57,011 nucleotides of DNA from Escherichia phage vB_EcoM_fHy-Eco03 (MW602648.1), one strand, 5' to 3'; positions 1 through 57,011 are shown, counted from the first letter of the stretch. Numbers and translations: made by a program. The notes: generated by a model from the sequence alone, not told the origin.

Positions 1-45
1 GGCGCAAAAAGAAAAAAAGCCGGATTGCTTTTGAAATTATAGACA

Positions 46-74
46 TTTACACAAGTCTTAAACTATGTTACAAT
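46..74 (+). promoter_or_regulatory. Sigma70-like promoter (TTTACA-N17-TGtTACAAT) in terminal repeat
   Basis: TTTACA at 46..51, 17-bp spacer, TACAAT at 69..74 preceded by TG at 66..67; about 40 bp upstream of the ATG at 114. Duplicate at 53358..53386. Confidence 0.5.
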
Positions 75-113
75 AGTTATTATTTACAATGTTAAGCACA
101 ATAGGAATTCATC

Positions 114-311
114 ATGAGCTATACTGACCAACAAATTGACACAGCAGCGGTTTTATTGGCACAAGAGGTAGATTTATTGCATTCTTTGATGAATGCTAGT
201 CATGATAGAGCTGAAACTATCAAGAATCAGATACGGGAAATTTGGTCTCAGCAGGTCAGCAACGGTGTATCTTTGGACTTTTTGGTGTGCCGCCTGAGAG
301 GTCAACTGTAA
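114..311 (+). CDS. Hypothetical protein (65 aa)
   Basis: ATG ORF with AGGAA 6 nt upstream; stop overlaps the next start (TAATG). Confidence 0.5.
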   Translation: MSYTDQQIDTAAVLLAQEVDLLHSLMNASHDRAETIKNQIREIWSQQVSNGVSLDFLVCRLRGQL

Positions 312-736
312 TGGTAAACATAAGAAGCAAGGGCCAGAACTTTGAGCGTAAAATGTCGAAAATGTTCAATGAATCGTTCGGGTTATCTACTGAGAGAAAT
401 CTCCAGCAATCTATAAACGGTGGAGATGATTTGATGGGAGTCCCGTTCTTCAGCGTTGAGCTCAAGAAGCACAACACCAAAGCTATCGGGACTTGGTGGA
501 AGCAATGTGCGGAATCAGCACGGCGTCAAAGCAAGATGCCAGTGCTAATCTATGAGATGCCACGGCAAAAGCCCACTGTCGTGATGAGAATTGAGGACGT
601 CAGTCAAGCTTTGGCTGAGGCACCACTGTTGCCAGCGGCTAGTAACAGGCTCTTTGTGGGCTTGGTGGAATTAACATGGGAACAATTTTGCCGGGTCTAC
701 AACTTTTACGTTGCGCCCGGCGTCGAGGTTGCTTAG
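311..736 (+). CDS. Putative PD-(D/E)xK-family nuclease (141 aa)
   Basis: ATG at 311 overlaps the upstream stop. Motif GGDDLMGVPFFSVELKK (D...ELK) resembles the PD-(D/E)xK nuclease signature. Track ORF 242..736 is the same frame with an upstream start. Confidence 0.4.
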   Translation: MVNIRSKGQNFERKMSKMFNESFGLSTERNLQQSINGGDDLMGVPFFSVELKKHNTKAIGTWWKQCAESARRQSKMPVLIYEMPRQKPTVVMRIEDVSQALAEAPLLPAASNRLFVGLVELTWEQFCRVYNFYVAPGVEVA

Positions 737-774
737 GTTGATGCTTGCATCAACACCAGTCAACTGTAGTTGAC
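737..774. terminator. Two adjacent hairpins between convergent genes
   Basis: GTTGATG-cttg-CATCAAC (737..754) and GTCAAC-tgta-GTTGAC (759..774), between the + gene ending at 736 and the - gene ending at 777; no clear U-run. Confidence 0.3.
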
Positions 775-776
775 AC

Positions 777-962
777 TTAGTCTTGTTTCAACTCATCGCA
801 GATAACGCGTTGATTTTGAGCTGGTACAAACCCGAGTTCGAGCAAAGTGTAAGGACTATCGGCGACGCATTGTTCAATGGTAGTCCATTCAGTTTTGGAT
901 TCAATAATTTTGTAACTACAATCATGAGTAGCCACACATGTTGCCAGGATTAAGCCAATCAC
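777..962 (-). CDS. Hypothetical protein (61 aa, GTG start)
   Basis: GTG start overlaps the upstream stop (GTGA); GAAGGAG Shine-Dalgarno upstream. Confidence 0.45.
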   Translation of the reverse strand: MIGLILATCVATHDCSYKIIESKTEWTTIEQCVADSPYTLLELGFVPAQNQRVICDELKQD

Positions 963-1138
963 AAGTAATCTCCTTCAACCAGAAACTCAAACAATTGGTT
1001 GTAAACGTTGCAACCCTTAGCGAAAGAGCTTTCAGCAGGTTTACCATCGCGGACGATCATCATATATTCACCGCCATGAATATCCACCCAGTATTGCATG
1101 CCACCCTTGACAGGGTTACGTTGTAAGAATTTAAACAT
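959..1138 (-). CDS. Hypothetical protein (59 aa), absent from the ORF track
   Basis: Hand-translated: MFKFLQRNPVKGG...VEGDYL. AAGGAG 7 nt upstream of the ATG; start overlaps the upstream stop (TAATG) and stop overlaps the downstream GTG. Confidence 0.5.
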   Translation of the reverse strand: MFKFLQRNPVKGGMQYWVDIHGGEYMMIVRDGKPAESSFAKGCNVYNQLFEFLVEGDYL

Positions 1139-1383
1139 TATTTGCTCCTTACTCCAAGTTTATTCAATAACCACACTGTCATGTCAACCCAGGTTAACGG
1201 TACAGTTTTCGGGGGTTGATAAGACCAGCACTTTCCAGCTCTTTCCGCAATTTCTTCGCGCCTTGCCGCTTGGCGTAATACTGCATCGTCAGAAGTGCCG
1301 GCAGAAAAAATATCGGCAATACCAGATAAATCGCCTCGATGAACACGTCCAGCAAGTTCATGCAGTTGCTCCTCAGAAAACAT
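1138..1383 (-). CDS. Hypothetical protein (81 aa)
   Basis: ATG start overlaps the stop of the upstream small ORF (ATGTTTTCTGA); part of the coupled leftward array. Confidence 0.5.
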   Translation of the reverse strand: MFSEEQLHELAGRVHRGDLSGIADIFSAGTSDDAVLRQAARREEIAERAGKCWSYQPPKTVPLTWVDMTVWLLNKLGVRSK

Positions 1384-1492
1384 AAGACAACACCATTAGA
1401 ATGATGATAAAGACAGCAACGGCTTTCGCCATGCCACGAGATTCATTATACACCGGATTTTCAGTGGTGTACTCAACAACATGCTTTTTCAT
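1373..1492 (-). CDS. Small hydrophobic protein (39 aa), absent from the ORF track
   Basis: Hand-translated: MKKHVVEYTTENPVYNESRGMAKAVAVFIIILMVLSYVF. GGAGG Shine-Dalgarno upstream; hydrophobic C-terminal half suggests a membrane segment. Confidence 0.45.
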   Translation of the reverse strand: MKKHVVEYTTENPVYNESRGMAKAVAVFIIILMVLSYVF

Positions 1493-1549
1493 ACAACCTC
1501 CAGTGTGAGAAATATCAATTGATGGCACCCGCAGATGCCATCTCAGATA

Positions 1550-2122
1550 TTACTCGCCTTCAGTCTCAGATTTTTCTTCAGTCTGAGGTGCTGCGGCTTC
1601 GTAGACCGTCTTACCATCAGTGATTTTACCGGATTTAACATCGTTACGGTAATAACTCATGTAAGACTGTACAACACGTTTTGATTTAACATCATCTTCA
1701 GCCATTTCACAGGCTTTCATGGCATCCGCAAGAGCGAGTTTTGAATCGTCTTTGTCTGCCAAGTTGTAATCTTTGAAGACCGCGTAACAAGTATCTTTGG
1801 TACTCGGTCCTGAAGATTTACGAGTACAACCAGTTGAACCGGAACGACTAGCTTTCTTCACTTCAACATGCTCAACCTCAAGACTTTCAAGTGCCTTATA
1901 CAAAGCAGGCACCAGAACATCCTTGCTGTCTTTGTGGGTGACAGATGCTTCATCATCAAGACTTTTAATCATCTTGACCAGTTGAGCATTTTGGAACTCT
2001 TTGAGAGCGCCTTTCTCAACAACGATGCAACTCATCATGCCTTCCATTGACAGACCATCTTTGATGCCTTCAACAGAAAAAGCGGAAGTTAAGTAAACAT
2101 ACTGAGTGATAGAATTTTCCAT
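1550..2122 (-). CDS. Hypothetical early protein (190 aa)
   Basis: Long ORF with AAGAGGA Shine-Dalgarno upstream; largest ORF in the terminal repeat. Confidence 0.6.
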   Translation of the reverse strand: MENSITQYVYLTSAFSVEGIKDGLSMEGMMSCIVVEKGALKEFQNAQLVKMIKSLDDEASVTHKDSKDVLVPALYKALESLEVEHVEVKKASRSGSTGCTRKSSGPSTKDTCYAVFKDYNLADKDDSKLALADAMKACEMAEDDVKSKRVVQSYMSYYRNDVKSGKITDGKTVYEAAAPQTEEKSETEGE

Positions 2123-2252
2123 GATTTTGTCCTCTTGTTTGTGGTTGACATCATTATAATGTCATGACTTCAGTTGTTTGTACATCTCAAATCACACATT
2201 TTTGTGCAATTTTTATCATGCGGTACGAATTATACCGCATTGTAAAAATTAC

Positions 2253-2453
2253 TCAAGAAATAATTACCTCAGTAACTACTACAGTGTTAGCAGTCACTAA
2301 TGTCAAAACTTTACCAGCTTTTGACCTCACAGCTTTCAACCGTAATTGTGACTGTGTGTAATTATTCCACTCTTCATCACTGAGCACGGTCCTGGTAACT
2401 TCAGGTCGTTCATCTTTGCCAAGCTTCACTACTGTAACTTTGATTAATGGCAT
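2253..2453 (-). CDS. Hypothetical protein (66 aa)
   Basis: ORF packed 4 nt after the upstream gene. Confidence 0.45.
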   Translation of the reverse strand: MPLIKVTVVKLGKDERPEVTRTVLSDEEWNNYTQSQLRLKAVRSKAGKVLTLVTANTVVVTEVIIS

Positions 2454-2456
2454 TGC

Positions 2457-2684
2457 TTAAACCTCAAATTTTGATTCGTCATATTCAGGGTCAGTCACAT
2501 CACGAGTGACACAATTTTGGAGTGCAGTCCAGTATTTTTGGACTTCAGCACCCTCCATGTATAGTGTCCAACCGTGATAGTAACCCTCGAAACTATTCCA
2601 GGTCCGTTCCCAAATCTTTCCGTCTTCGAGCTTATACTCAGTTGGTCTTGAGTCAAACTCACGGATAGTTGTGAATGTTACCAT
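2457..2684 (-). CDS. Hypothetical protein (75 aa)
   Basis: ORF in the coupled leftward array. Confidence 0.45.
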   Translation of the reverse strand: MVTFTTIREFDSRPTEYKLEDGKIWERTWNSFEGYYHGWTLYMEGAEVQKYWTALQNCVTRDVTDPEYDESKFEV

Positions 2685-2753
2685 GCGTTGTTACGCCTCT
2701 GTTGAATAATTTCAATCATGAACTATCACAACTTTGATAGTTCATTGTTGAAA

Positions 2754-2933
2754 CTATTGTAACTTTGTACTAATTTGAATTGTCAATCTAAACTCTTCAA
2801 GTAAGTTATCAATGTTGGATTTATCTTCCACAGCGGTAGAAATTTGATCACTTACAATTTGAGCATTTGACTCAAGAAGTTCAATCAAATGTGTCAATTC
2901 GTCTGCTGTCAATGTCAATTCTTTCATCATCAT
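2754..2933 (-). CDS. Hypothetical acidic protein (59 aa), absent from the ORF track
   Basis: Hand-translated: MMMKELTLTADELTHLIELLESNAQIV... Start overlaps the stop of the upstream ORF (ATGATGA). Confidence 0.4.
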   Translation of the reverse strand: MMMKELTLTADELTHLIELLESNAQIVSDQISTAVEDKSNIDNLLEEFRLTIQISTKLQ

Positions 2934-3100
2934 TCTCCTGAGTTAAATTGTGTGTCAATTTCAATAACTTTGGAACGTACATATTCCAGACAGTCATCAT
3001 AATCGTATGAAGTGTAACTCGGCATTGGAGAATCCAACCCTTCGTTAACATTCCATTCACCTTCATTAACATCAAACCAGATGATTAATTGAGTATGCAT
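2930..3100 (-). CDS. Hypothetical protein (56 aa), absent from the ORF track
   Basis: Hand-translated: MHTQLIIWFDVNEGEWNVNEGLDSPMPSYTSYDYDDCLEYVRSKVIEIDTQFNSGE. AGGAGT Shine-Dalgarno 8 nt upstream of the ATG. Confidence 0.45.
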   Translation of the reverse strand: MHTQLIIWFDVNEGEWNVNEGLDSPMPSYTSYDYDDCLEYVRSKVIEIDTQFNSGE

Positions 3101-3270
3101 TGTTATTACTCCTGTGTTAAGTTGTTTCAGGTGAGACTACTAAACTACTAATAGTCTCTGGATGAAATAACTTCACAGAGAAACAAAACATGTACCAAAT
3201 TGTTAAAGAGCAAAAGACACCATTGACCATCTACCAGATGTGTCTGTTGACTGGTTAAGTACTAACTACA

Positions 3271-3462
3271 CTAAGTAACTACATGCATCCTCCTGAACCG
3301 TTTCTGTGTCAAGTTGTTCAACACATTCAATAAATACATTATGTCAAAGTCCCTGTTGGTTGTACACAATAGAAGTGCAAGTTTGTGCAAGCTTTTAGAA
3401 ATGATAATCATCTGCGGTTGATAGTGATTCTCGTATGCAATTGATATAGTAACGCTCGTCAC
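3271..3462 (-). CDS. Hypothetical protein (GTG start, uncertain)
   Basis: Track ORF; its 5' end overlaps repeat element A, so the start is uncertain. Confidence 0.3.
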   Translation of the reverse strand: MTSVTISIAYENHYQPQMIIISKSLHKLALLLCTTNRDFDIMYLLNVLNNLTQKRFRRMHVVT

Positions 3463-3545
3463 TACTCAGTGTGAAACAGTCGACGGGGGTAAACGTCACA
3501 CACCGGTGCTATATTAGTTCCCCGGCGCAATTTTTATAAAAAATA
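3440..3545. repeat. Imperfect direct repeat element A (about 100 bp)
   Basis: TTGATATAGTAACGCTCGTCACTACTCAGTGTGAAACAGTCGACGGGGGTAAACGTCACACACCGGTGCTATATTAGTTCCCCGGCGCAATTTTTAT aligns with element B 173 bp downstream. Confidence 0.6.
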
Positions 3546-3612
3546 CAATTTCGTTTGTAATCGTAGACATACGGTATAGTTGCGGCCCGGTACCGTCACG
3601 GTGAGTTGTGAT

Positions 3613-3720
3613 TACGATTGTAATGATAACGCACGTTACTATTCACTCTGAAGGGGTGCCGGGGGGTAATTGTCACCTAGGGGTGTTAATTTAAGCCCCG
3701 GCAAATTTTTTATTTTTTTC
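3613..3720. repeat. Imperfect direct repeat element B, spanning the terminal-repeat boundary
   Basis: TTGTAATGATAACGCACGTTACTATTCACTCTGAAGGGGTGCCGGGGGGTAATTGTCACCTAGGGGTGTTAATTTAAGCCCCGGCAAATTTTTTAT; the repeat boundary (3699/3700) falls inside it at CCCC|GGC. Confidence 0.6.
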
Positions 3721-3966
3721 GTCCTTTTTCATCTCAATCACTATCATTATGTGACAATCATCAGGTCACTGTACAATACCGTATACAATAAGCTTCACAA
3801 TCGCAATTGACTCTCCTCCATACAACAAAAGGCCCTCCAAAATTTTTTTATATCTTCCGTACCGAATATAGACACCTCTAAAAAGTGGTGTACTTTTCCA
3901 CCACTGCACGCTATCATTATTAGTAACTTCAACGGACTTCGGTCCTTCATATTGTGGGTTATATAA

Positions 3967-4461
3967 ATGGAAATTCAACAGCTTCTGCCATATCCGTACT
4001 ATATAGCTTGTGTCTTCAACCGAGCACAATACGATGAGCTTCGTGCTCAATTCAACTTACCAAGCTTTGGCTACTGGGAAGACCCAGAAGAAGAATGGCC
4101 AGTGGCTTCTGCATCATTCCTTGCACGCAAGGAACACCCTCGTAAACTGGGTATCATGTGCTTTTATGACAAGGATTTTGACATCTGCTCTGTAGCCCAC
4201 GAAGGTGTGCACATAATGTCTGACCTGATGCATCGCCTCGGCATTACCTACGACCCGTTAAACGACGAGCCGTATGCTTATCAGCTCGAGCAAATCATGT
4301 ACTTCGCACGGCATAAATACAACGAGCTTCACAGCGCTATTGAGCACGTTGAAAAGGCTGTTATTGACACAGGTAATCACCCTTTAGTGCTTGAACAGCC
4401 TCAAAATCAGCTCAATATGCTAAATTCGGCCCCTTCAACTGGCTTTCTGGACGGCAAATAA
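3967..4461 (+). CDS. Hypothetical protein with HExxH motif (164 aa)
   Basis: ORF containing HEGVH; first rightward gene after the terminal repeat. A metallopeptidase-like function is speculative. Confidence 0.4.
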   Translation: MEIQQLLPYPYYIACVFNRAQYDELRAQFNLPSFGYWEDPEEEWPVASASFLARKEHPRKLGIMCFYDKDFDICSVAHEGVHIMSDLMHRLGITYDPLNDEPYAYQLEQIMYFARHKYNELHSAIEHVEKAVIDTGNHPLVLEQPQNQLNMLNSAPSTGFLDGK

Positions 4462-4697
4462 TGACTGTAGTTGCACCTGTAAAACGCGAAGTCACTGTAC
4501 ACTACACAGTGCGCATAACTATACCGCGTATTAAAGACCAAGGGCTTCAGCGCGAAGTCATTGATACATGGGCCAAATTCTCCGTCCGGGCAGACCAGAA
4601 GCTTGACGAGGATAAAGCCAGGGCTATCCTGGAAGAGCGTTATATCAATAAACTGGGTGCAACCCACTTCAAATGGCTTAAATTTAAGGTAAAATGA
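4461..4697 (+). CDS. Hypothetical protein (78 aa)
   Basis: ORF coupled to the flanking genes. Confidence 0.4.
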   Translation: MTVVAPVKREVTVHYTVRITIPRIKDQGLQREVIDTWAKFSVRADQKLDEDKARAILEERYINKLGATHFKWLKFKVK

Positions 4698-5368
4698 TGA
4701 TTAATATCATGTTTGCTATGGGCAAAAACGGAGAATTCGGCCGTTCGCTGGAACTCCATAAATCGATTGTTGCCCAGTCTACTGACGAAGAGCTTCGCGC
4801 GCTTCCTAAAAATGGTCTCCCTTGGGTTTGTCGACCTGACATGCTCTTTTTCAGGACTATGACTAATGGTATTGCTTCCGATACAGGCTATAACGCATTT
4901 GAGCAGCTCCGCGGTCAATTTCCCAGCCAGCAGGTAAGCTCGGTAATCAATAACGCAGCCGGAGAGACATCCCAACACAACGTAATATTGGCAGGACGCA
5001 AAACCTGGTTGCAGATGAGCTTACCGCCTTCTCGCTATCGCACCTTTTTGCCCGTCAGCAGACAAGTATTCAAGGATAACGCTTTCTTGACGCTTGCTGA
5101 TATGTGCAAACACTGTGAAGACGCCGGAAATGACGTCTGGATTGTGGGTGGCAAGGAATTGATTATGTCAGCGCTGGTCGAGCACTCGCTGGGTGACCTC
5201 CGTGTTGACAACATGTTCATCAGTACAATAGCCAATGCGGGTCCGAGTGACATCCTACTGGACCGAGAAAAAATAATGGCGTACATAGATAGTGACTTCG
5301 CGTATAATGATGAATATGCTGAAAACAACGAAGTACTCATCCAACGATTTAGAGGCAAACACAAATGA
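4694..5368 (+). CDS. Dihydrofolate reductase-like protein
   Basis: DHFR-like motifs recalled from E. coli FolA and T4 Frd: LPW...FF..T, ILAGRKTW...LP..R, VWIVGGKELI. Carries insertions; not aligned. Confidence 0.5.
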   Translation: MMINIMFAMGKNGEFGRSLELHKSIVAQSTDEELRALPKNGLPWVCRPDMLFFRTMTNGIASDTGYNAFEQLRGQFPSQQVSSVINNAAGETSQHNVILAGRKTWLQMSLPPSRYRTFLPVSRQVFKDNAFLTLADMCKHCEDAGNDVWIVGGKELIMSALVEHSLGDLRVDNMFISTIANAGPSDILLDREKIMAYIDSDFAYNDEYAENNEVLIQRFRGKHK

Positions 5369-5871
5369 ACATCATAGTTGAGGGACCTGACAATGCTGGT
5401 AAATCTACACTTATTAAGTTCCTTGAATCTAATTTGCGCCGCAGTGTTATTCATAATACTGTTGACAAGGATTCGACATCGGTTCTGGGTAAACAAGCTC
5501 AAGAATTATCGCTTGAAGGTAACATTATTTATGACCGCAGCGCTGTTATATCTGAGTATATCTACTGCCTGGTTCTTCAACGTGCGCCTGTAGTCCCTTT
5601 TAATATATCTCATGTAGCAGACTTATGCGATAATGCTATTGTCGTGTTCTGTCTGCCGCCGTTAGATAAGGTTTTGGCCACAACTAAAGACGAAATGCCT
5701 GGTGTGGTCGAAAATCTTGAAAAGCTATATAACCAGTATGACAACTTGATTGATGAGTTAGTTATGATGGGTAAACAGTTCTTTGTATATGACTGGACCA
5801 TTGAAGAAGATGGTGCAGAAGCAGCACTAGAATACATCAATGAACGTAACGATAAGGAGTGGACTAAATGA
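5365..5871 (+). CDS. P-loop deoxynucleoside monophosphate kinase (thymidylate-kinase-like)
   Basis: N-terminal Walker A IVEGPDNAGKST, as in dNMP and thymidylate kinases; size about 168 aa. Confidence 0.5.
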   Translation: MNIIVEGPDNAGKSTLIKFLESNLRRSVIHNTVDKDSTSVLGKQAQELSLEGNIIYDRSAVISEYIYCLVLQRAPVVPFNISHVADLCDNAIVVFCLPPLDKVLATTKDEMPGVVENLEKLYNQYDNLIDELVMMGKQFFVYDWTIEEDGAEAALEYINERNDKEWTK

Positions 5872-7075: not shown

Positions 7076-7399
7076 ATGGCACGAAAACCACAAAAGACAC
7101 GCGATGCCACAGCAGAACTGCTGGCTAGCATGAATCGTATTCAGCTCGACCCGCTTGAAGTTATTGCACGTGCCATCAAACTGGCTGAAGCTGACAGTGA
7201 TTATAAGACTATGATTGACGGTTCACTCGGCATTATGCCGTATATGTACCCTAAATTAAAAGAGTCTGTTGTTAAAGCTGATATTGACCAGACCATTTCT
7301 GGCGGCGGTGTTAACCTTAACATTACAGTCGGCGGTAAGAAAATAGTCGGCGAAGAACCAGAAGAAGAACCTGAGGACGAGGATAATAATGAATCTTGA
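7076..7399 (+). CDS. Putative terminase small subunit
   Basis: 107-aa ORF immediately upstream of, and overlapping, the large terminase; acidic C-terminus. Called by position only. Confidence 0.4.
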   Translation: MARKPQKTRDATAELLASMNRIQLDPLEVIARAIKLAEADSDYKTMIDGSLGIMPYMYPKLKESVVKADIDQTISGGGVNLNITVGGKKIVGEEPEEEPEDEDNNES

Positions 7400-8840
7400 T
7401 TTTGACCTGCACGACAGGCAAGGTGAAGCCCTGCTGTCCCAGGCCACCGAGATTCTTTATGGTGGTGCAGCAGGCGGGGGCAAATCCCACTTGATGCGCA
7501 TTATGGCTATCATTCTTTGCTGTATGATACCTCGTTTACAGATTTACTTGTTTCGCCGTAACTTTAATGACCTGACAGCTAACCATATGGTTGGTCCGTC
7601 AGGTTTTCCTGCATTGCTTGACCATATGGTTAAAGCTGGTAAATGCAAGATTAACTACTCCAGTAACGTGATTAAGTTCTGGAATGGTTCGCACATTAAC
7701 TTGTGTCACCTACAATACGAGAAAGATATATACACCTACCAGGGTGCTGAGATTCACGTTCTGTTAATGGATGAGCTTACTCACTTTACAGAAACGATGT
7801 ATCGATTCCTCCGTAACCGTGTTCGTTTAGGTGCGCTAAAGATTCCAAAGGACTTCTTCCGGCCGCTACCACTCATCTTTTGTGGGTCAAACCCCGGTGG
7901 TATCGGGCACAACTGGGTTAAGCGTACTTTCGTAACAGCTGCACCTCCTATGCACATGGTTAAACAACCTAAGCGTGAAGGTGGTATGATTCGCCAGTAC
8001 ATTCCGGCAAAAATGTCTGATAACCCAACCCTGATGGAAAACGACCCGGACTACGGTGACCGACTCGAAGGTCTGGGTGACCCGGCACTGGTTGCTGCAA
8101 TGAAAGAAGGCGACTGGGATATTGTTGCTGGTGGTGCGCTGGATGACGTGTGGAGTAACAAGTCAGTTATACCACGAATGAAAGTTCCTAAAGGCTGGAC
8201 AATTGAACGTTCAATGGACTGGGGCTCAACGCATCCATTCTCTATTGGTTGGTGGGCCATTTCAAATGGTGCTCCTCTGGTAGATGAGAAGACTGGCGAA
8301 GAGTATCACCTTCCAAACGGCTCATTAATCCGTATAGCTGAATGGTACGGGTGCAAGGAAAACGAAGCTAACACCGGTTTGAAATTGTCTGCAGGTGAAG
8401 TAGCTGACGGTATTCTTGAGATTGAAGAAAACTTGCTACTTGGCGGTTGGATTCATGACAAGCCTTGGCCTGGCCCGGCAGACGGACAGATTTATGCCGT
8501 TAAAGAGCGTGACGTAGAGACCATCGCTAAAAAGATGGAAGACAAAGGTGTGCACTGGGTGCGTGCCGACAAGTCACAGGGCTCAAGAATAAATGGCCTG
8601 GAGCTATTCCGTCAGCGACTGAAAAATGTTAAGATGGATAACTATGAAGAACCAGGCATTTACTTTATGGAAAACTGTACAGCTGCCATAAACACATTGC
8701 CAGTTATTCCGCGTGATAAAAACAACAGCGAAGACGTTGACACACATTCTGAAGACCACGTATATGACGATTGTAGGTACATGGTTCTGCGAGGTGTGAA
8801 TCGTTACGCTACATCATTGAACGTTAAGATGGGACGGTAA
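7389..8840 (+). CDS. Terminase large subunit
   Basis: Walker A YGGAAGGGKSH and Walker B VLLMDELTHF; 483 aa; followed by the portal gene. Confidence 0.85.
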   Translation: MNLDFDLHDRQGEALLSQATEILYGGAAGGGKSHLMRIMAIILCCMIPRLQIYLFRRNFNDLTANHMVGPSGFPALLDHMVKAGKCKINYSSNVIKFWNGSHINLCHLQYEKDIYTYQGAEIHVLLMDELTHFTETMYRFLRNRVRLGALKIPKDFFRPLPLIFCGSNPGGIGHNWVKRTFVTAAPPMHMVKQPKREGGMIRQYIPAKMSDNPTLMENDPDYGDRLEGLGDPALVAAMKEGDWDIVAGGALDDVWSNKSVIPRMKVPKGWTIERSMDWGSTHPFSIGWWAISNGAPLVDEKTGEEYHLPNGSLIRIAEWYGCKENEANTGLKLSAGEVADGILEIEENLLLGGWIHDKPWPGPADGQIYAVKERDVETIAKKMEDKGVHWVRADKSQGSRINGLELFRQRLKNVKMDNYEEPGIYFMENCTAAINTLPVIPRDKNNSEDVDTHSEDHVYDDCRYMVLRGVNRYATSLNVKMGR

Positions 8841-33985: not shown

Positions 33986-35953
33986 TTAATGGGCCTCATC
34001 CCAGTTATTTCCTATCTGAGCATCTGTCAGAACTGGTACGCGAAGCGGTAACACTGTTTCCATAACCCGAACAAAGTCTTTAAATCCTGACTTGGCGCTG
34101 TCAGTGTCCGGAATAGAGAAGTTTAATTCATCGTGCACGGTTAAACGAGGTACACCAATCTCGTCAAAGTAACCGTCCTCATAACCTTTCAGCATCGCAG
34201 CTTTCATCTGGTCTGCAGAAGAACCCTGCAGGACTCGGTTGATAGCTTTGTGGGTATCGGCTAGTTTAATATTGTAGCCGTACTCTTCTCGCGCTTTATC
34301 CAGCGGTAAAGGCATCTTACCAAATCCACCACGTTTTGGTACCCATTTATCAAACCAGGTTTTGCGCCCCATAAAGGTTTCAACATAACCCTGCGAGTAG
34401 CATAGCTCCTCATAGTATTTCATTGTCGCACCAATGAACGGGGCACCTTTGTGGTATGCTTCAAGTATTGGTTTAGCTTCGTCTGGAGTCATTGCCAGCT
34501 TACGGGCCAAAGCATTCAGCATCATGCCATAGAGCAAACCAAAGTTAATTGTCTTAGCCGGTTTACGCTCTATAATGTGACCTGAGGCTTCCTTGATAAT
34601 GTCGACCATAACATTGTGGTAATCTGCTTCCGGGTTAGCCGCGAAAATTGCTCGTAACTCATCAGCGCCTGGGCCGATTGCAAAATGCGCCATGAATCGA
34701 TATTCAATTTGGGCGTAGTCGGCGGAAGCCCATTTGTGTCCGTAGTCCGGTACGAAACAAGAACGAACGAGTGGTCCCAATATTTTGTGTCGAGACGGTA
34801 TATTCTGCAGATTAGGGTCAGATGAGCTAAACCGACCACTAACGGTGCCACCGTCATCACCGCGCATTTGATGGAATTGACCGTGAAGGAAGCCATTGTT
34901 ATTTAACCCCAGTATGTAACCACGAATAAACGTGGATTGTATTTTCTCAAAAGACTTAATCTCCGTAACTAACTGAGCGAACGGATGATGTAAGCCTGCC
35001 AGGAAGTCAGCACCAAAGGAAGGGTTACCTTTCTCTGTCTTGCCGTATTCCAGACCTAAATGGTCAAAAGCTAACGCCAGGTCACTGCCTGAGTTAACGT
35101 TTATGCTAAAGCCAAGTTGAGAACGAATCTCCTGATGCATTTTGGCAATTTCTTGGTCCAGCCTGTCATCAGCTTTCTTGGCAGCATCAAGGTCAACTCG
35201 TACACCTGCAAGACGCATCTTAATCATCAGCGGAATCAGCTTTGTCTCCATCATGAAGACGTCCATCAGCTTCCACTTATTAAGTTGCGCCCATTGTTTT
35301 TTCAGTACGTGGATTGGCAAGTCAGCATCTGACTCAGCGTAATAACCCACAAGACGAGGTGGTGTTTTGTAGATGTAGCCACGTGCCTCTCCGTTAGGTT
35401 TACAACCATATGCTTCTGCAATCCATTCGTACATTTCCGACGAGTCTTTACCTTCGCCTACATACTTTTGGCCCAGTCCTTCAAGTGCGACCCTTGCACC
35501 CGGATTGAGAAGAGCTTCGGCAAATTGAACGTCAAACGTGAGCCCTTGTACTTCAACCCCTTCTGCCTTAAGCCAGCCCAAATCGTATGTAATGTTAGCA
35601 CCGACTTTAACTTGCCCCGGTCTGCCGAGCTCACGCTTGAGCCATCCCAATACTTCATAAGCTGGCAGATTATCCTCTGCGCCGAGCTCATGTCTGATGG
35701 GATAGTAAGCCTTGAACCCGTTGTCAGTAGCGATACTAACTCCAACGATGTGACCTTCCCCTCTCGCCCAACCAGGACCAGCTGTGAGGAGGCCAGGGTC
35801 CCATGTCTCACAGTCAAGGCCAATAATCTTTGCCGATGATAAATCCGGGTAATGCGCGCGCGGCCGCCATCCAGTATCTCTGACGTAAGGGATAGGCCTG
35901 TGAATCGGTTTAACATTCTTAGCTCCTTCAAACTCGTCAAAAAGAAAACTCAT
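33986..35953 (-). CDS. DNA polymerase, family A, with 3'-5' exonuclease domain
   Basis: Exo I motif IIGLDCETWD; motif A DYAQIEYRFMAH; motif B RKPAKTINFGLLYGM; motif C VHDE. Confidence 0.9.
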   Translation of the reverse strand: MSFLFDEFEGAKNVKPIHRPIPYVRDTGWRPRAHYPDLSSAKIIGLDCETWDPGLLTAGPGWARGEGHIVGVSIATDNGFKAYYPIRHELGAEDNLPAYEVLGWLKRELGRPGQVKVGANITYDLGWLKAEGVEVQGLTFDVQFAEALLNPGARVALEGLGQKYVGEGKDSSEMYEWIAEAYGCKPNGEARGYIYKTPPRLVGYYAESDADLPIHVLKKQWAQLNKWKLMDVFMMETKLIPLMIKMRLAGVRVDLDAAKKADDRLDQEIAKMHQEIRSQLGFSINVNSGSDLALAFDHLGLEYGKTEKGNPSFGADFLAGLHHPFAQLVTEIKSFEKIQSTFIRGYILGLNNNGFLHGQFHQMRGDDGGTVSGRFSSSDPNLQNIPSRHKILGPLVRSCFVPDYGHKWASADYAQIEYRFMAHFAIGPGADELRAIFAANPEADYHNVMVDIIKEASGHIIERKPAKTINFGLLYGMMLNALARKLAMTPDEAKPILEAYHKGAPFIGATMKYYEELCYSQGYVETFMGRKTWFDKWVPKRGGFGKMPLPLDKAREEYGYNIKLADTHKAINRVLQGSSADQMKAAMLKGYEDGYFDEIGVPRLTVHDELNFSIPDTDSAKSGFKDFVRVMETVLPLRVPVLTDAQIGNNWDEAH

Positions 35954-36982: not shown

Positions 36983-37912
36983 TTAAACGGCCATTTGAAC
37001 TTTGATGTTAGCCTGTGGCTTATACTCATCAATCATATCTTGCACATCGGCAACCTGGAAGTCTGTCAACGGAACGTCTTCAATTGACTTGATAGACGGA
37101 CGGTTATCAGATGCAGGGTCATGGCAATCATGGTCTTTGAACAGACGTTTGCGGAACTGTTCAACTGCGTCGAGTGAGTTATTATACAGGTGGTAATCAC
37201 CCAAAGTAAACAACAAATCACCTGGGCGTTTACCTGTCTGAGCGGCCAGCATGATGAGCAGCAACTGGTGCAGCAGAATGTCATGAGGCAGACCCAGCAG
37301 AACATCAGCAGAACGCATATGGAACATCAGGTCCAGCTCGTTCTTTTCGTTTACAAAACACTGGAAGCCATGATAGCAAGGCGGCAGTGCCATATCTGCA
37401 AACTCTTCAGGGTTCCATGCCGTTACATACATACGGCGGTCAGCAGGATTAGTCTTCAGCGTTTCAATCAAACGCTCCAGCTGAGTTGTATACTCAGGAA
37501 CCTGATAACCAACAGGGTCACCGTACGTTTGGCCTTCAACCTTTACGCCGCAGATAAAGGGTTTAACCCATTGGGCGCCATACACTGGTCCCAAATCCCG
37601 ATTGTCAGGAGTTCCCCATTTGGCATTGGCAGCTTGCAGATTAGCTTCCCACCAATTGCATCCATGCCGTTTAAGTTCATCCACGTTAGTAATTCCGTTA
37701 ATGAAGCAGTAAAGCTCAGCAGCCACGGCCTTAATATTAACGGGCTTGAATAGCGGCACCATGAGCTTATTGTGGGTAAACTTAAGTCGAGCGCTAAAAC
37801 CGAAGCTGCGCTTAGTACCAACACCAGTACGATCGTTACTGCTCTCTCCCCCGGCTGTGAGCTCATTGAATAGGGTCTCCATCACATCGTCAACAGTATT
37901 AAAGGTGCGCAT
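36983..37912 (-). CDS. Thymidylate synthase-family enzyme, probably cytosine-specific (dCMP hydroxymethylase or methyltransferase candidate)
   Basis: Hand-aligned to E. coli ThyA from memory: NDRTG, DLGPVYG.QW, catalytic PPC (ALPPCYH), R-S-x-D, GD.HLY and C-terminal ...MAV. The residue matching ThyA Asn177 (PFNIAS) is Asp (PHDILL). ATG at 37912 overlaps the MazG stop. Confidence 0.8.
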   Translation of the reverse strand: MRTFNTVDDVMETLFNELTAGGESSNDRTGVGTKRSFGFSARLKFTHNKLMVPLFKPVNIKAVAAELYCFINGITNVDELKRHGCNWWEANLQAANAKWGTPDNRDLGPVYGAQWVKPFICGVKVEGQTYGDPVGYQVPEYTTQLERLIETLKTNPADRRMYVTAWNPEEFADMALPPCYHGFQCFVNEKNELDLMFHMRSADVLLGLPHDILLHQLLLIMLAAQTGKRPGDLLFTLGDYHLYNNSLDAVEQFRKRLFKDHDCHDPASDNRPSIKSIEDVPLTDFQVADVQDMIDEYKPQANIKVQMAV

Positions 37913-38514
37913 TATACATCCATCTCCATTTGTCCGCCTTTGGTCTGGTGCCACTCGACCACTTTATGAATGTCAGGTGCTGTCCAGCCTTCTGGCTTAA
38001 CGATGTCCTGACATGATTTGTGTTTGCTATCGCTTGCATCAGGTTTAGCACGTTCTTTCGCCATGTTGGCTTTTTGTACTTCGTCCCATGCTTCATCGAA
38101 TGGCCAGTTGTTATTAGCACACCATACGAAGATGTGATTAACCAGGCTTGCAAGGTGCTTGCAGTGAGTTGCTTCATCGTCAGTAAAATAGGCACGAAGC
38201 TCTTTTGCATTGAAGCGGTTCATGAATGAACATGGCTCAATGCCAGGCTGTACAGGATAATCGAAGTCATTGGTAAACCAGTGAACTTCATCGTACAGAT
38301 ACAGTGTACCAACAGCGATATAAACTGTATCAACCAGTGCATCCAGGAATTTACCCTTGTCATTTTCGTCCAAAGCTTCCTGGATTTCGTCTAGCTCTTC
38401 TACCAGACGGTCGTAGCGAAGTTTGAATTCTGGTTTACCACCCATGCTAAGTGGCTTGAGGTCAAACTTATTATGGAAAGCGATAACATCGCTTGCAGCT
38501 TTACTGAAATGCAT
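37912..38514 (-). CDS. MazG-like nucleoside triphosphate pyrophosphohydrolase
   Basis: All-alpha NTP-PPase motif EELDEIQEA...D; coupled to the thymidylate-synthase-family gene. Confidence 0.55.
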   Translation of the reverse strand: MHFSKAASDVIAFHNKFDLKPLSMGGKPEFKLRYDRLVEELDEIQEALDENDKGKFLDALVDTVYIAVGTLYLYDEVHWFTNDFDYPVQPGIEPCSFMNRFNAKELRAYFTDDEATHCKHLASLVNHIFVWCANNNWPFDEAWDEVQKANMAKERAKPDASDSKHKSCQDIVKPEGWTAPDIHKVVEWHQTKGGQMEMDV

Positions 38515-53203: not shown

Positions 53204-53357
53204 TATATAAAAGATAGAGAGTATTTAAAACAAGTACTTAGGCATCCTTATTCATGTAATCCGGTTATATGTATTATATAATTATCAGATTGGATAAGAA
53301 AAAGTTATTGCCGGCGCAAAAAGAAAAAAAGCCGGATTGCTTTTGAAATTATAGACA

Positions 53358-53386
53358 TTTACACAAGTCTTAAACTATGTTACAAT
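53358..53386 (+). promoter_or_regulatory. Copy of the terminal-repeat promoter (TTTACA-N17-TGtTACAAT)
   Basis: Duplicate of 46..74. Confidence 0.5.
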
Positions 53387-53425
53387 AGTTATTATTTACA
53401 ATGTTAAGCACAATAGGAATTCATC

Positions 53426-53623
53426 ATGAGCTATACTGACCAACAAATTGACACAGCAGCGGTTTTATTGGCACAAGAGGTAGATTTATTGCATTCTTTG
53501 ATGAATGCTAGTCATGATAGAGCTGAAACTATCAAGAATCAGATACGGGAAATTTGGTCTCAGCAGGTCAGCAACGGTGTATCTTTGGACTTTTTGGTGT
53601 GCCGCCTGAGAGGTCAACTGTAA
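53426..53623 (+). CDS. Hypothetical protein (duplicate of 114..311)
   Basis: Identical copy in the right terminal repeat. Confidence 0.5.
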   Translation: MSYTDQQIDTAAVLLAQEVDLLHSLMNASHDRAETIKNQIREIWSQQVSNGVSLDFLVCRLRGQL

Positions 53624-54048
53624 TGGTAAACATAAGAAGCAAGGGCCAGAACTTTGAGCGTAAAATGTCGAAAATGTTCAATGAATCGTTCGGGTTATCT
53701 ACTGAGAGAAATCTCCAGCAATCTATAAACGGTGGAGATGATTTGATGGGAGTCCCGTTCTTCAGCGTTGAGCTCAAGAAGCACAACACCAAAGCTATCG
53801 GGACTTGGTGGAAGCAATGTGCGGAATCAGCACGGCGTCAAAGCAAGATGCCAGTGCTAATCTATGAGATGCCACGGCAAAAGCCCACTGTCGTGATGAG
53901 AATTGAGGACGTCAGTCAAGCTTTGGCTGAGGCACCACTGTTGCCAGCGGCTAGTAACAGGCTCTTTGTGGGCTTGGTGGAATTAACATGGGAACAATTT
54001 TGCCGGGTCTACAACTTTTACGTTGCGCCCGGCGTCGAGGTTGCTTAG
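53623..54048 (+). CDS. Putative PD-(D/E)xK-family nuclease (duplicate of 311..736)
   Basis: Identical copy in the right terminal repeat. Confidence 0.4.
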   Translation: MVNIRSKGQNFERKMSKMFNESFGLSTERNLQQSINGGDDLMGVPFFSVELKKHNTKAIGTWWKQCAESARRQSKMPVLIYEMPRQKPTVVMRIEDVSQALAEAPLLPAASNRLFVGLVELTWEQFCRVYNFYVAPGVEVA

Positions 54049-54088
54049 GTTGATGCTTGCATCAACACCAGTCAACTGTAGTTGACAC

Positions 54089-54274
54089 TTAGTCTTGTTT
54101 CAACTCATCGCAGATAACGCGTTGATTTTGAGCTGGTACAAACCCGAGTTCGAGCAAAGTGTAAGGACTATCGGCGACGCATTGTTCAATGGTAGTCCAT
54201 TCAGTTTTGGATTCAATAATTTTGTAACTACAATCATGAGTAGCCACACATGTTGCCAGGATTAAGCCAATCAC
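54089..54274 (-). CDS. Hypothetical protein (duplicate of 777..962)
   Basis: Identical copy in the right terminal repeat. Confidence 0.45.
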   Translation of the reverse strand: MIGLILATCVATHDCSYKIIESKTEWTTIEQCVADSPYTLLELGFVPAQNQRVICDELKQD

Positions 54275-54450
54275 AAGTAATCTCCTTCAACCAGAAACTC
54301 AAACAATTGGTTGTAAACGTTGCAACCCTTAGCGAAAGAGCTTTCAGCAGGTTTACCATCGCGGACGATCATCATATATTCACCGCCATGAATATCCACC
54401 CAGTATTGCATGCCACCCTTGACAGGGTTACGTTGTAAGAATTTAAACAT
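54271..54450 (-). CDS. Hypothetical protein (duplicate of 959..1138)
   Basis: Identical copy in the right terminal repeat. Confidence 0.5.
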   Translation of the reverse strand: MFKFLQRNPVKGGMQYWVDIHGGEYMMIVRDGKPAESSFAKGCNVYNQLFEFLVEGDYL

Positions 54451-54695
54451 TATTTGCTCCTTACTCCAAGTTTATTCAATAACCACACTGTCATGTCAAC
54501 CCAGGTTAACGGTACAGTTTTCGGGGGTTGATAAGACCAGCACTTTCCAGCTCTTTCCGCAATTTCTTCGCGCCTTGCCGCTTGGCGTAATACTGCATCG
54601 TCAGAAGTGCCGGCAGAAAAAATATCGGCAATACCAGATAAATCGCCTCGATGAACACGTCCAGCAAGTTCATGCAGTTGCTCCTCAGAAAACAT
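54450..54695 (-). CDS. Hypothetical protein (duplicate of 1138..1383)
   Basis: Identical copy in the right terminal repeat. Confidence 0.5.
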   Translation of the reverse strand: MFSEEQLHELAGRVHRGDLSGIADIFSAGTSDDAVLRQAARREEIAERAGKCWSYQPPKTVPLTWVDMTVWLLNKLGVRSK

Positions 54696-54804
54696 AAGAC
54701 AACACCATTAGAATGATGATAAAGACAGCAACGGCTTTCGCCATGCCACGAGATTCATTATACACCGGATTTTCAGTGGTGTACTCAACAACATGCTTTT
54801 TCAT
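54685..54804 (-). CDS. Small hydrophobic protein (duplicate of 1373..1492)
   Basis: Identical copy in the right terminal repeat. Confidence 0.45.
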   Translation of the reverse strand: MKKHVVEYTTENPVYNESRGMAKAVAVFIIILMVLSYVF

Positions 54805-54861
54805 ACAACCTCCAGTGTGAGAAATATCAATTGATGGCACCCGCAGATGCCATCTCAGATA

Positions 54862-55434
54862 TTACTCGCCTTCAGTCTCAGATTTTTCTTCAGTCTGAGG
54901 TGCTGCGGCTTCGTAGACCGTCTTACCATCAGTGATTTTACCGGATTTAACATCGTTACGGTAATAACTCATGTAAGACTGTACAACACGTTTTGATTTA
55001 ACATCATCTTCAGCCATTTCACAGGCTTTCATGGCATCCGCAAGAGCGAGTTTTGAATCGTCTTTGTCTGCCAAGTTGTAATCTTTGAAGACCGCGTAAC
55101 AAGTATCTTTGGTACTCGGTCCTGAAGATTTACGAGTACAACCAGTTGAACCGGAACGACTAGCTTTCTTCACTTCAACATGCTCAACCTCAAGACTTTC
55201 AAGTGCCTTATACAAAGCAGGCACCAGAACATCCTTGCTGTCTTTGTGGGTGACAGATGCTTCATCATCAAGACTTTTAATCATCTTGACCAGTTGAGCA
55301 TTTTGGAACTCTTTGAGAGCGCCTTTCTCAACAACGATGCAACTCATCATGCCTTCCATTGACAGACCATCTTTGATGCCTTCAACAGAAAAAGCGGAAG
55401 TTAAGTAAACATACTGAGTGATAGAATTTTCCAT
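54862..55434 (-). CDS. Hypothetical early protein (duplicate of 1550..2122)
   Basis: Identical copy in the right terminal repeat. Confidence 0.6.
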   Translation of the reverse strand: MENSITQYVYLTSAFSVEGIKDGLSMEGMMSCIVVEKGALKEFQNAQLVKMIKSLDDEASVTHKDSKDVLVPALYKALESLEVEHVEVKKASRSGSTGCTRKSSGPSTKDTCYAVFKDYNLADKDDSKLALADAMKACEMAEDDVKSKRVVQSYMSYYRNDVKSGKITDGKTVYEAAAPQTEEKSETEGE

Positions 55435-55564
55435 GATTTTGTCCTCTTGTTTGTGGTTGACATCATTATAATGTCATGACTTCAGTTGTTTGTACATCTC
55501 AAATCACACATTTTTGTGCAATTTTTATCATGCGGTACGAATTATACCGCATTGTAAAAATTAC

Positions 55565-55765
55565 TCAAGAAATAATTACCTCAGTAACTACTACAGTGTT
55601 AGCAGTCACTAATGTCAAAACTTTACCAGCTTTTGACCTCACAGCTTTCAACCGTAATTGTGACTGTGTGTAATTATTCCACTCTTCATCACTGAGCACG
55701 GTCCTGGTAACTTCAGGTCGTTCATCTTTGCCAAGCTTCACTACTGTAACTTTGATTAATGGCAT
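55565..55765 (-). CDS. Hypothetical protein (duplicate of 2253..2453)
   Basis: Identical copy in the right terminal repeat. Confidence 0.45.
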   Translation of the reverse strand: MPLIKVTVVKLGKDERPEVTRTVLSDEEWNNYTQSQLRLKAVRSKAGKVLTLVTANTVVVTEVIIS

Positions 55766-55768
55766 TGC

Positions 55769-55996
55769 TTAAACCTCAAATTTTGATTCGTCATATTCAG
55801 GGTCAGTCACATCACGAGTGACACAATTTTGGAGTGCAGTCCAGTATTTTTGGACTTCAGCACCCTCCATGTATAGTGTCCAACCGTGATAGTAACCCTC
55901 GAAACTATTCCAGGTCCGTTCCCAAATCTTTCCGTCTTCGAGCTTATACTCAGTTGGTCTTGAGTCAAACTCACGGATAGTTGTGAATGTTACCAT
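55769..55996 (-). CDS. Hypothetical protein (duplicate of 2457..2684)
   Basis: Identical copy in the right terminal repeat. Confidence 0.45.
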   Translation of the reverse strand: MVTFTTIREFDSRPTEYKLEDGKIWERTWNSFEGYYHGWTLYMEGAEVQKYWTALQNCVTRDVTDPEYDESKFEV

Positions 55997-56065
55997 GCGT
56001 TGTTACGCCTCTGTTGAATAATTTCAATCATGAACTATCACAACTTTGATAGTTCATTGTTGAAA

Positions 56066-56245
56066 CTATTGTAACTTTGTACTAATTTGAATTGTCAATC
56101 TAAACTCTTCAAGTAAGTTATCAATGTTGGATTTATCTTCCACAGCGGTAGAAATTTGATCACTTACAATTTGAGCATTTGACTCAAGAAGTTCAATCAA
56201 ATGTGTCAATTCGTCTGCTGTCAATGTCAATTCTTTCATCATCAT
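56066..56245 (-). CDS. Hypothetical protein (duplicate of 2754..2933)
   Basis: Identical copy in the right terminal repeat. Confidence 0.4.
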   Translation of the reverse strand: MMMKELTLTADELTHLIELLESNAQIVSDQISTAVEDKSNIDNLLEEFRLTIQISTKLQ

Positions 56246-56412
56246 TCTCCTGAGTTAAATTGTGTGTCAATTTCAATAACTTTGGAACGTACATATTCCA
56301 GACAGTCATCATAATCGTATGAAGTGTAACTCGGCATTGGAGAATCCAACCCTTCGTTAACATTCCATTCACCTTCATTAACATCAAACCAGATGATTAA
56401 TTGAGTATGCAT
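56242..56412 (-). CDS. Hypothetical protein (duplicate of 2930..3100)
   Basis: Identical copy in the right terminal repeat. Confidence 0.45.
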   Translation of the reverse strand: MHTQLIIWFDVNEGEWNVNEGLDSPMPSYTSYDYDDCLEYVRSKVIEIDTQFNSGE

Positions 56413-56582
56413 TGTTATTACTCCTGTGTTAAGTTGTTTCAGGTGAGACTACTAAACTACTAATAGTCTCTGGATGAAATAACTTCACAGAGAAACAAAA
56501 CATGTACCAAATTGTTAAAGAGCAAAAGACACCATTGACCATCTACCAGATGTGTCTGTTGACTGGTTAAGTACTAACTACA

Positions 56583-56774
56583 CTAAGTAACTACATGCAT
56601 CCTCCTGAACCGTTTCTGTGTCAAGTTGTTCAACACATTCAATAAATACATTATGTCAAAGTCCCTGTTGGTTGTACACAATAGAAGTGCAAGTTTGTGC
56701 AAGCTTTTAGAAATGATAATCATCTGCGGTTGATAGTGATTCTCGTATGCAATTGATATAGTAACGCTCGTCAC
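56583..56774 (-). CDS. Hypothetical protein (duplicate of 3271..3462)
   Basis: Identical copy in the right terminal repeat. Confidence 0.3.
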   Translation of the reverse strand: MTSVTISIAYENHYQPQMIIISKSLHKLALLLCTTNRDFDIMYLLNVLNNLTQKRFRRMHVVT

Positions 56775-57011
56775 TACTCAGTGTGAAACAGTCGACGGGG
56801 GTAAACGTCACACACCGGTGCTATATTAGTTCCCCGGCGCAATTTTTATAAAAAATACAATTTCGTTTGTAATCGTAGACATACGGTATAGTTGCGGCCC
56901 GGTACCGTCACGGTGAGTTGTGATTACGATTGTAATGATAACGCACGTTACTATTCACTCTGAAGGGGTGCCGGGGGGTAATTGTCACCTAGGGGTGTTA
57001 ATTTAAGCCCC

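Follow-up and report, generated by a model that had tools for sequence, protein, structure and literature searches.

The window analysed here is the whole 57,011-nt stretch of DNA from Escherichia phage vB_EcoM_fHy-Eco03 (GenBank MW602648; fHy-Eco03 below). It begins and ends with the same 3,699-bp direct terminal repeat, and the short motif at the two repeat boundaries is a conserved cleavage site with exact cut positions. Judged from the sequence, the boundary sites are an inverted pair whose cut strand reads A-tract, 4–7 bases, GCY/GG(C/G)G (a slash between bases marks the cut bond; a slash within brackets, alternative bases). A third copy of the site inside the repeat, TTCCCC/GGCGCAATT, is cleaved, in a large fraction of molecules, at the same CC/GG bond of both strands. 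We lean, though not strongly, towards an explanation in which the fixed ends come from a nuclease cutting at inverted oriented sites, with opposite-strand nicks and duplication of the repeat by strand displacement. The repeat copies and the left (L), right (R) and third (S3) sites are as follows.

1..3699, no strand assigned: direct terminal repeat, left copy, from its identity to 53313-57011 and the published PhageTerm repeat of 3699 bp
53313..57011, no strand assigned: direct terminal repeat, right copy, from self-identity; its 439-bp ScaI right-end fragment was reproduced in silico
53296..53319, plus strand: left cleavage site L, AAGAAAAAGTTATTGCC/GGCGCAA; top strand cut between 53312 and 53313, giving the virion 5' end GGCGCAA at position 1
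3695..3719, minus strand: right cleavage site R, top strand GCCCC/GGCAAATTTTTTATTTTTTT; the cut strand is the bottom one, AAAAAAATAAAAAATTTGCC/GGGGC, between 3699 and 3700
3518..3535, no strand assigned: third site S3, TTCCCC/GGCGCAATTTTT; both strands cut between 3523 and 3524
56830..56847, no strand assigned: copy of S3 in the right repeat, 176 bp from the right end, which follows from the exactness of the repeat

Self-comparison of the window gave exact identity between 1-3699 and 53313-57011, with 0 mismatches in 3,699 bases. Each copy makes up 6.5% of the window, and the unit genome is 53,312 bp; the window is the complete mature virion DNA, in which this unit is followed by its first 3,699 bp once more. 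The repeat was already known, since for exactly this phage a 57,011-bp genome of 45.1% GC with a 3,699-bp PhageTerm repeat has been published (Kasurinen et al. 2021, PMC8145870), together with ScaI end fragments of 3,260 and 439 bp seen experimentally. The PhageTerm call was 'DTR (long), T5 class, 3699 bp' (DTR, direct terminal repeat) and 'Permuted: No' (PMC8145870). The nine ScaI fragments obtained in silico from the window equal the published list, including the 3,260-bp left-end and 439-bp right-end fragments, and its gene coordinates agree with Table S2 of the same paper (PMC8145870); the product of 7076-7399 is on record as fHyEco03_gp18. A note to Table S2 in that supplement says '3229 bp terminal repeats', against 3,699 bp in the main text and the PhageTerm output.

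A preliminary description of this DNA had taken the window for a complete genome with identical 3,699-bp repeats at fixed, non-permuted ends, and both the published PhageTerm call and the ScaI fragments agree with it. What long-direct-terminal-repeat packaging leaves behind was found here: an exact end duplication of more than 1 kb and, in the published table, a sharp plus-strand peak on the left and minus-strand peak on the right, without permutation. An alternative in which the repeat arose as an artefact when a circularly permuted, headful-packaged genome was assembled or deposited is effectively refuted. Such an artefact would fit the fact that most relatives were deposited as 52-53 kb records without repeats, but the PhageTerm p values for the ends range from 1e-114 to 1e-195 with the genome called not permuted, and the ScaI end fragments were seen. 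In addition, restriction mapping of phage S144 independently put a physical end in the same intergenic gap, and phages Sz and AEV23 agree. The repeat is real and experimentally backed. Cohesive ends of the cos type are ruled out for the main ends by the 3,699-bp redundancy; a minor class of blunt, non-redundant molecules running from S3 to S3 may exist beside them.

The right junction, at 3696-3705, reads CCCC/GGCAAA (in longer form ...AAGCCCC/GGCAAATTTTTT, between 3699 and 3700), and the left junction, at 53309-53320, reads TGCC/GGCGCAAA (in longer form ...TTATTGCC/GGCGCAAAAAG, between 53312 and 53313). CC/GGC is common to both, and here the preliminary description had read the sequences correctly. 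The third copy that it reported, CCCCGGCGCAATT, exists as well and sits at 3520-3532, ten positions from the 3510-3522 originally given. S3 consists of the R inner half joined to the L inner half and therefore mimics the junction of a mature right end with a mature left end. A concatemer junction of the form ...AAGCCCC/GGCGCAAAAAG, proposed in that description, had to be dropped, because this sequence arises only when two mature ends are joined and a replicative concatemer should hold one repeat per unit; it is the third site that does resemble such an end-to-end junction. The CCGGC pentamer alone is common, with 37 copies on the plus strand; for CCGGCGCAA, the concatemer-form genome has exactly two occurrences, one at the left boundary and one in the third copy. 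Since CCGGCGCAA is confined to L and S3, the boundaries are kept in relatives and all three copies lie base-exactly on published read-start peaks, the motif is not a chance resemblance.

The read-start peaks were taken over, without recomputation, from the PhageTerm table in Fig. S6 of the supplement of PMC8145870, the window position being the assembly position minus 47,594.

Assembly 47595, window 1, plus strand: T 0.66, p 1.5e-114
Assembly 51118, window 3524, plus strand: T 0.40, p 2.1e-26
Assembly 51293, window 3699, minus strand: T 0.68, p 1e-195
Assembly 51117, window 3523, minus strand: T 0.59, p 3.9e-149

All four highly significant peaks fall at CC/GG, and the other peaks listed have T<=0.10, none of them at the motif. 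The observed 5' ends are TTATTGCC/GGCGCAA on the L top strand, GTTCCCC/GGCGCAA on the S3 top strand, AAATTTGCC/GGGGC on the R bottom strand and AATTGCGCC/GGGGA on the S3 bottom strand; the uncut strands at L and R both read CC/GGCAA. The source paper gives the repeat length only and is silent on the boundary motif, its conservation and the second peak pair, 51117/51118 (PMC8145870). Weak, nominally significant peaks off the motif lie between 3859 and 3860 (T=0.07, p=1.7e-7) and between 46997 and 46998 (T=0.10, p=1.3e-4).

Megablast and blastn searches placed the window among BP63-like myoviruses of Salmonella and Escherichia (genera Rosemountvirus and Loughboroughvirus), and the repeat and its flanks have matches in 61 records of Rosemountvirus or Loughboroughvirus type. 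To compare the boundaries, the stretch bounded by the primase and Ku-like genes was aligned across nine phages (fHy-Eco03, KM, SOI901, KE26, S144, Sz, birk, 8-19 and JEP7). Salmonella phage vB_SalM_Sz (PP236111, 57,020 bp) was deposited with an exact repeat of 4,263 bp and ends GGCGAAAAAAATAAAAAAGCCGGATTG... and ...CAGGAGCC/AGCGGAATTTTTTTATTTTTT, both of which share alignment columns with the fHy-Eco03 ends. For Klebsiella phage AEV23, a PhageTerm repeat of 3,915 bp has been published (PMC12918118), and the distance from motif to motif in this phage is exactly 3,915 bp, identical to that in S144. Three independently determined repeats (3,699 bp in fHy-Eco03, 4,263 bp in Sz and 3,915 bp in AEV23) end in the same alignment columns across both genera. 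These end determinations, with the cutting of the third copy in published data, bear out the earlier suggestion that the motif is a cleavage site.

The left boundary consensus is an A-tract, 4–7 bases, GCC/GGCG, a second A-tract and G(C/T)CGGATTG, followed by a sigma-70-like promoter, TTTACA-N17-TACAAT; the right boundary consensus is (G/C)GCC/RRC(R)(R)A, followed by a run resembling T7-A-T6. L was assigned from the plus-strand peak at position 1, GCC/GGCG after an A-tract in the nine phages and the Sz end in the same column, and R from the minus-strand peak at 3699, the conserved GCC/RRC followed by a T-run and the shared column of the Sz right end. S3 is kept in 9/9 phages, 175-177 bp from R, and its composite form is present in every lineage (GGAGCC/GGCGAAA in the Sz group, GGCGCC/GGCGAAA in SOI901). 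By the motif rule, the predicted repeat lengths are 4,770 bp in birk, 4,452 bp in 8-19, 4,269 bp in JEP7, 3,936 bp in KM, 3,879 bp in KE26 and 3,631 bp in SOI901.

The two oversized records checked for deposited repeats, UPF_BP2 and AEV23, held none, and the AEV23 surplus is an IS5 transposase/methyltransferase segment. In its record (OR810919.1, 53894-55637), about 1.7 kb of this DNA is joined exactly at the left terminus, and the homology between AEV23 and S144 breaks precisely at /GGCGG, where the foreign DNA is joined; the record was probably assembled chimerically at a physical DNA end. Two further records are weakly supportive: that of SB2 ends 1 nt before the cut but has a 265-nt assembly overlap, and that of PEA2-3 was opened 12 nt inside the repeat.

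To compare orientations, a position weight matrix made from the right sites of the relatives only was scanned over both strands of the concatemer-form genome (106,782 positions). R ranked 1st, and L ranked 4th on the minus strand, in exact register, against 1,672nd on the plus strand, i.e., in direct orientation. Over the nine phages, R and L share 129/216 in-register identities when inverted and 95/216 when read directly, and the inverted reading is better in 8/9 phages. The boundary motif had been described before as a direct repeat; on these ranks and identities, an inverted pair matches better. With the reciprocal left-site matrix, the cut strands ranked 2-10 (R bottom) and 3-17 (S3 bottom) and the uncut strands 20-675 (R top) and beyond 100 (L bottom). 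As expected under T7-type duplication of the repeat by staggered nicks, the same oriented site was found at both boundaries, inverted, with the 5' end of the cut strand facing outward. With 29 occurrences of the short core CCGG(C/G)G and no other peaks, the flanking A/T-tract context must matter. As candidate binding sites of a small terminase, the CCGGAT boxes that flank the left site were rejected, since they show no genome-wide enrichment (18 against 21 expected).

The repeat ends would be fixed, on the explanation that we lean towards, because a phage nuclease cuts a conserved oriented site present in one copy per boundary and in inverted orientation. We infer nicks rather than double-strand cuts. 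The top strand would be nicked at L and the bottom strand at R, each resulting 5' end becoming an outer end of the repeat; in a concatemer with one repeat per unit, the two nicks would lie 3.7 kb apart on opposite strands. A polymerase would then extend each 3'-OH through the repeat with strand displacement, yielding two blunt-ended genomes with a full repeat each, so that every terminus would be set by the 5' end of a template strand. The scheme would amount to T7-type end formation at long range, 3.7 kb. At S3, a nick in the top strand would produce left ends at 3524 and a nick in the bottom strand right ends at 3523, which would account for all four peaks; alternatively, S3 may carry T5-like internal interruptions.

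The cutting at S3 reflects either alternative termini, with repeats of 3,523, 176 or 0 bp, or internal interruptions, and the PhageTerm T values fit the nick model and the alternative-end model roughly alike, without separating them. It is possible, and we put it forward tentatively, that the packaging nuclease of Rosemountvirus and Loughboroughvirus phages is a strand-specific nickase and that, with its sites inverted around the repeat, long-range staggered nicking and strand-displacement synthesis make the 3.6-4.8 kb repeats, with S3 substituting for either boundary, so that one lysate would contain molecules with repeats of 3,699, 3,523, 176 and 0 bp. If so, long-repeat, short-repeat and blunt unit-length packaging would coexist in one phage.

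The motif could instead be a site of double-strand cleavage by the terminase, which would cut at L, take up one unit and cut at R past the next repeat, with no duplication by synthesis; the neighbouring unit would be sacrificed, or extra copies would come from replication or recombination. The 5' ends on the two strands of S3 do lie at the same phosphodiester bond, as a blunt cut gives, and the CC/GG core is a palindrome. Nothing can be concluded from the absence of the outer products of cuts at L and R, since these would stay unpackaged. However, the sites are clearly asymmetric and lie inverted, and good scores are confined to the strands with their 5' end towards the repeat, which fits strand-specific action. 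Moreover, every virion holds internal L-bottom and R-top copies, and these give no peak (T<0.06), so the enzyme does not cut them. We regard double-strand cleavage as unlikely, although worth keeping in view.

Another account is that the S3 signal belongs to a separate nicking system of the T5, phiKMV or tf type, unrelated to packaging, and that its likeness to the termini stems from two tandem paralogous non-coding units.

3348..3523, plus strand: non-coding unit 1, paralogous to unit 2, ending at S3 and conserved across the clade
3524..3699, plus strand: non-coding unit 2, paralogous to unit 1, ending at R

The two units (176 nt each) are indeed paralogous, with a global alignment score of 31 against -5.7 +/- 5.3 for shuffles. 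Terminal-repeat phages with localized nicks are known, namely T5 (R/GCGCRGG), the phiKMV-like phages and tf (TACT/RTGMC); T values of 0.4-0.6 are compatible with partial nicking, and the peaks at 3523/3524 are a sequence-specific internal break in virion DNA such as these phages have. Their one-strand breaks at several consensus sites, however, were not seen here: the one extra site has both of its strands cut, and the other CCGG(C/G)G copies are without a peak. The right half of S3 matches the left terminus, which the unit duplication does not include (CCGGCGCAA is found nowhere but at L and S3), and plain nicks normally give no sharp read starts on both strands. A separate nicking system is consequently improbable.

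The units belong to a non-coding stretch of about 670 bp (3300-3970) between the last gene of the repeat and the Ku-like gene, which is strongly conserved in the two genera. A third unit, which is partial and has its end near 3835-3860, is found there too, as are TAGAC(A/G) boxes that recur and promoters pointing in divergent directions, and the stretch coincides with the cumulative GC-skew minimum. Besides its part in packaging, the stretch could be a replication origin or a regulatory hub. Transcription signals lie near both cuts.

3657..3704, plus strand: hairpin across the right cut followed by a T-run, intrinsic-terminator-like, strong only in fHy-Eco03 and KM
46..74, plus strand: conserved sigma-70-like promoter, TTTACA-N17-TACAAT with TG upstream, 45 bp inside the left end; second copy at 53358-53386

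The likeness of the boundaries might accordingly be incidental: the right terminator-like hairpin with T-run and, on the left, an A-tract or the UP-like element of an early promoter would be conserved as transcription signals, and the terminase would recognise something else and cut nearby. In keeping with this, the right cut of fHy-Eco03 sits in the 3' arm of a strong hairpin (-27 kcal/mol, z=-3.0), the promoter lies just inside the left end, and the whole of 3300-3970 may be viewed as a conserved regulatory hub. In Sz, SOI901, S144 and KE26, however, shuffled sequence folds at least as well as this region, although primary sequence and cut column are kept there, and the left site is not terminator-like on either strand. 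An intrinsic terminator was therefore rejected as a conserved feature of the right site, the hairpin being lineage-specific; with the hairpin not conserved in four lineages and the left site unlike a terminator, what is conserved is primary sequence and not RNA structure. The three sites also share the exact cut bond within the motif, genome-wide ranks of 2-10 of about 107,000 are in exact register, and we consider an incidental likeness very unlikely. The promoter at 46..74 is predicted to drive g01 and g02.

Four genes bear on the question of which enzymes would be involved.

7389..8840, plus strand: large terminase gp19, presumed cutting enzyme (Pfam Terminase_6N, PHROG 979/2)
7076..7399, plus strand: g18, candidate small terminase by position only, overlapping the start of the large-terminase gene
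33986..35953, minus strand: family A DNA polymerase with a 3'-5' exonuclease domain (Pfam DNA_pol_A, 9.5e-68)
311-736, plus strand, and 53623-54048: g02, Hjc-like PD-(D/E)XK Holliday-junction resolvase (Pfam PDDEXK_15)

The cutting nuclease is most likely gp19; this is inferred, and the present data fit the terminase and another nuclease alike. A published HHpred match links gp19 to T4 gp17 (PMC8145870). At E<=1e-10, gp19 matched 649 phage records, with identities of 83-99% within the clade, 59% in DMU1, 55% in PMBT28 and 30-40% in Pseudomonas, Xanthomonas and Arthrobacter siphoviruses, Seuratvirus and Nonagvirus; a sequence search for relatives in the PDB found none. No T5-like or SPO1-like phages were among the 649 records, no direct pairwise comparison with T5 TerL having been run; for T5-like phages, the absence follows from the organism counts, into which the hundreds of T5-like records of the collection would not fit. 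The T5/SPO1-type packaging originally suggested is thus supported by the PhageTerm class and not by the relatives of the large terminase. One source labels a g18 homolog 'terminase small subunit'; g18 has no Pfam match and no PDB sequence match, its AlphaFold model is poor (predicted local distance difference test score 62), and Foldseek against the PDB gave nothing below E=1. The family A polymerase is, from its domain content, a candidate for the strand-displacement synthesis. The resolvase g02, inside the repeat about 310 bp from the left terminus and behind the conserved strong promoter, is another candidate for the nuclease that processes the ends. Table S2 has a 'yes' for it in a column that appears to record detection in phage particles by liquid chromatography-tandem mass spectrometry (PMC8145870).

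Several points weigh against end formation by opposite-strand nicking at inverted sites. No small terminase was identifiable by family, PDB and fold searches of g18, and PMBT28 and DMU1 share no small terminase with fHy-Eco03. These nearest outgroups have large terminases 55-59% identical to gp19, and the motif pair was not found in them. The full recognition determinants are undefined, given the 29 copies of the core and a TTGCC/GGCG at 40219 that has no peak. At the main ends, T reaches 0.66-0.68, above the simple expectation of 0.5, and the cut positions rest on one published table and two deposited or published repeat lengths. As the outer fragments are not packaged, a nick and a double-strand cut at L and R look the same in read starts. 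The cutting of both S3 strands is not what would be expected of a nickase that simply acts on one strand. Finally, PhageTerm called the Rosemountvirus vB_SenM-1 (MT012730.1) 'COS' (PMC7503781); this call could come from dominance of the blunt S3-type cut in some relatives.

These ends can be compared with those of the known systems T7, T5, lambda and N4. T7 has a 160-bp repeat, a concatemer junction with one repeat, and ends made by staggered cuts and synthesis. It resembles fHy-Eco03 in its fixed, non-permuted, blunt redundant ends and in the opposite-strand cuts with strand displacement proposed here; the fHy-Eco03 repeat, by contrast, is 23x longer, a third internal site is cut, and the sequence search showed no relation between the large terminases. 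We know of no shared oriented sequence motif defined at both T7 boundaries. With T5, fHy-Eco03 has in common the PhageTerm class 'DTR long', genes of early host-takeover type in the repeat and GC-rich sequence-specific interruption. T5 differs in its 10-kb repeat, its many one-strand nicks and the lack of large-terminase homology, whereas fHy-Eco03 has one extra site, cut on both strands and sharing its sequence with the termini. In lambda, the large terminase nicks opposite strands of a partly symmetric site (cosN) beside accessory recognition or bending DNA (cosB), and the nicks, 12 bp apart, give cohesive ends. Opposite-strand nicking is likewise proposed for fHy-Eco03, and A-tracts flank its core; unlike in lambda, the half-reactions would be 3,699 bp apart at two inverted sites and would leave a terminal repeat. 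N4 and N4-like phages have a unique left end, several right ends and repeats of about 400 bp, so that repeat length varies among the virions of one population. More than one discrete right end is also one reading of the 3523 and 3699 peaks, but fHy-Eco03 has a second left end, 3524, too, and its alternative site mimics the main-site sequence.

The left repeat copy carries 11 small genes of early type, among them g02 and the toxic gp05 (1138-1383, minus strand, 81 aa). Because gp05 lies within the repeat, every virion holds two copies, a situation like that of the pre-early genes in the T5 repeat. The protein was studied structurally and functionally in a toxic-protein screen (PMC8145870). The DNA of fHy-Eco03 resists all tested restriction enzymes but ScaI (PMC8145870), which points to an unknown DNA modification. 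Two regions, 36983-38514 (minus strand) and 4694-5871 (plus strand), were flagged with a gene set of base-modification type, encoding a thymidylate-synthase-family enzyme, a MazG-like pyrophosphohydrolase, a dihydrofolate reductase and a nucleotide kinase. Over the whole window, an Rfam scan at gathering thresholds and a tRNA scan returned nothing.

In the searchable literature, we found no description of the cut-site motif of this clade, of the inverted arrangement at the boundaries or of third-site cleavage. What is new is the motif result, that is, the conserved inverted cut site and the cutting at the third site; the repeat itself and sequence-specific fixed-end packaging (T7, T5, SPO1, N4, lambda cos) were known, and the novelty is modest. 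The clade comprises about 60 sequenced phages of Salmonella, E. coli, Klebsiella and Erwinia, and for several of these a use in therapy or biocontrol has been proposed. For relatives deposited as collapsed 52-53 kb records, the motif predicts true ends and repeat lengths (3,631 to 4,770 bp), and it flags chimeric records such as that of AEV23. The generation of long terminal repeats is poorly understood even for T5 and SPO1, and an oriented cut site together with a natural third site makes the mechanism directly testable.

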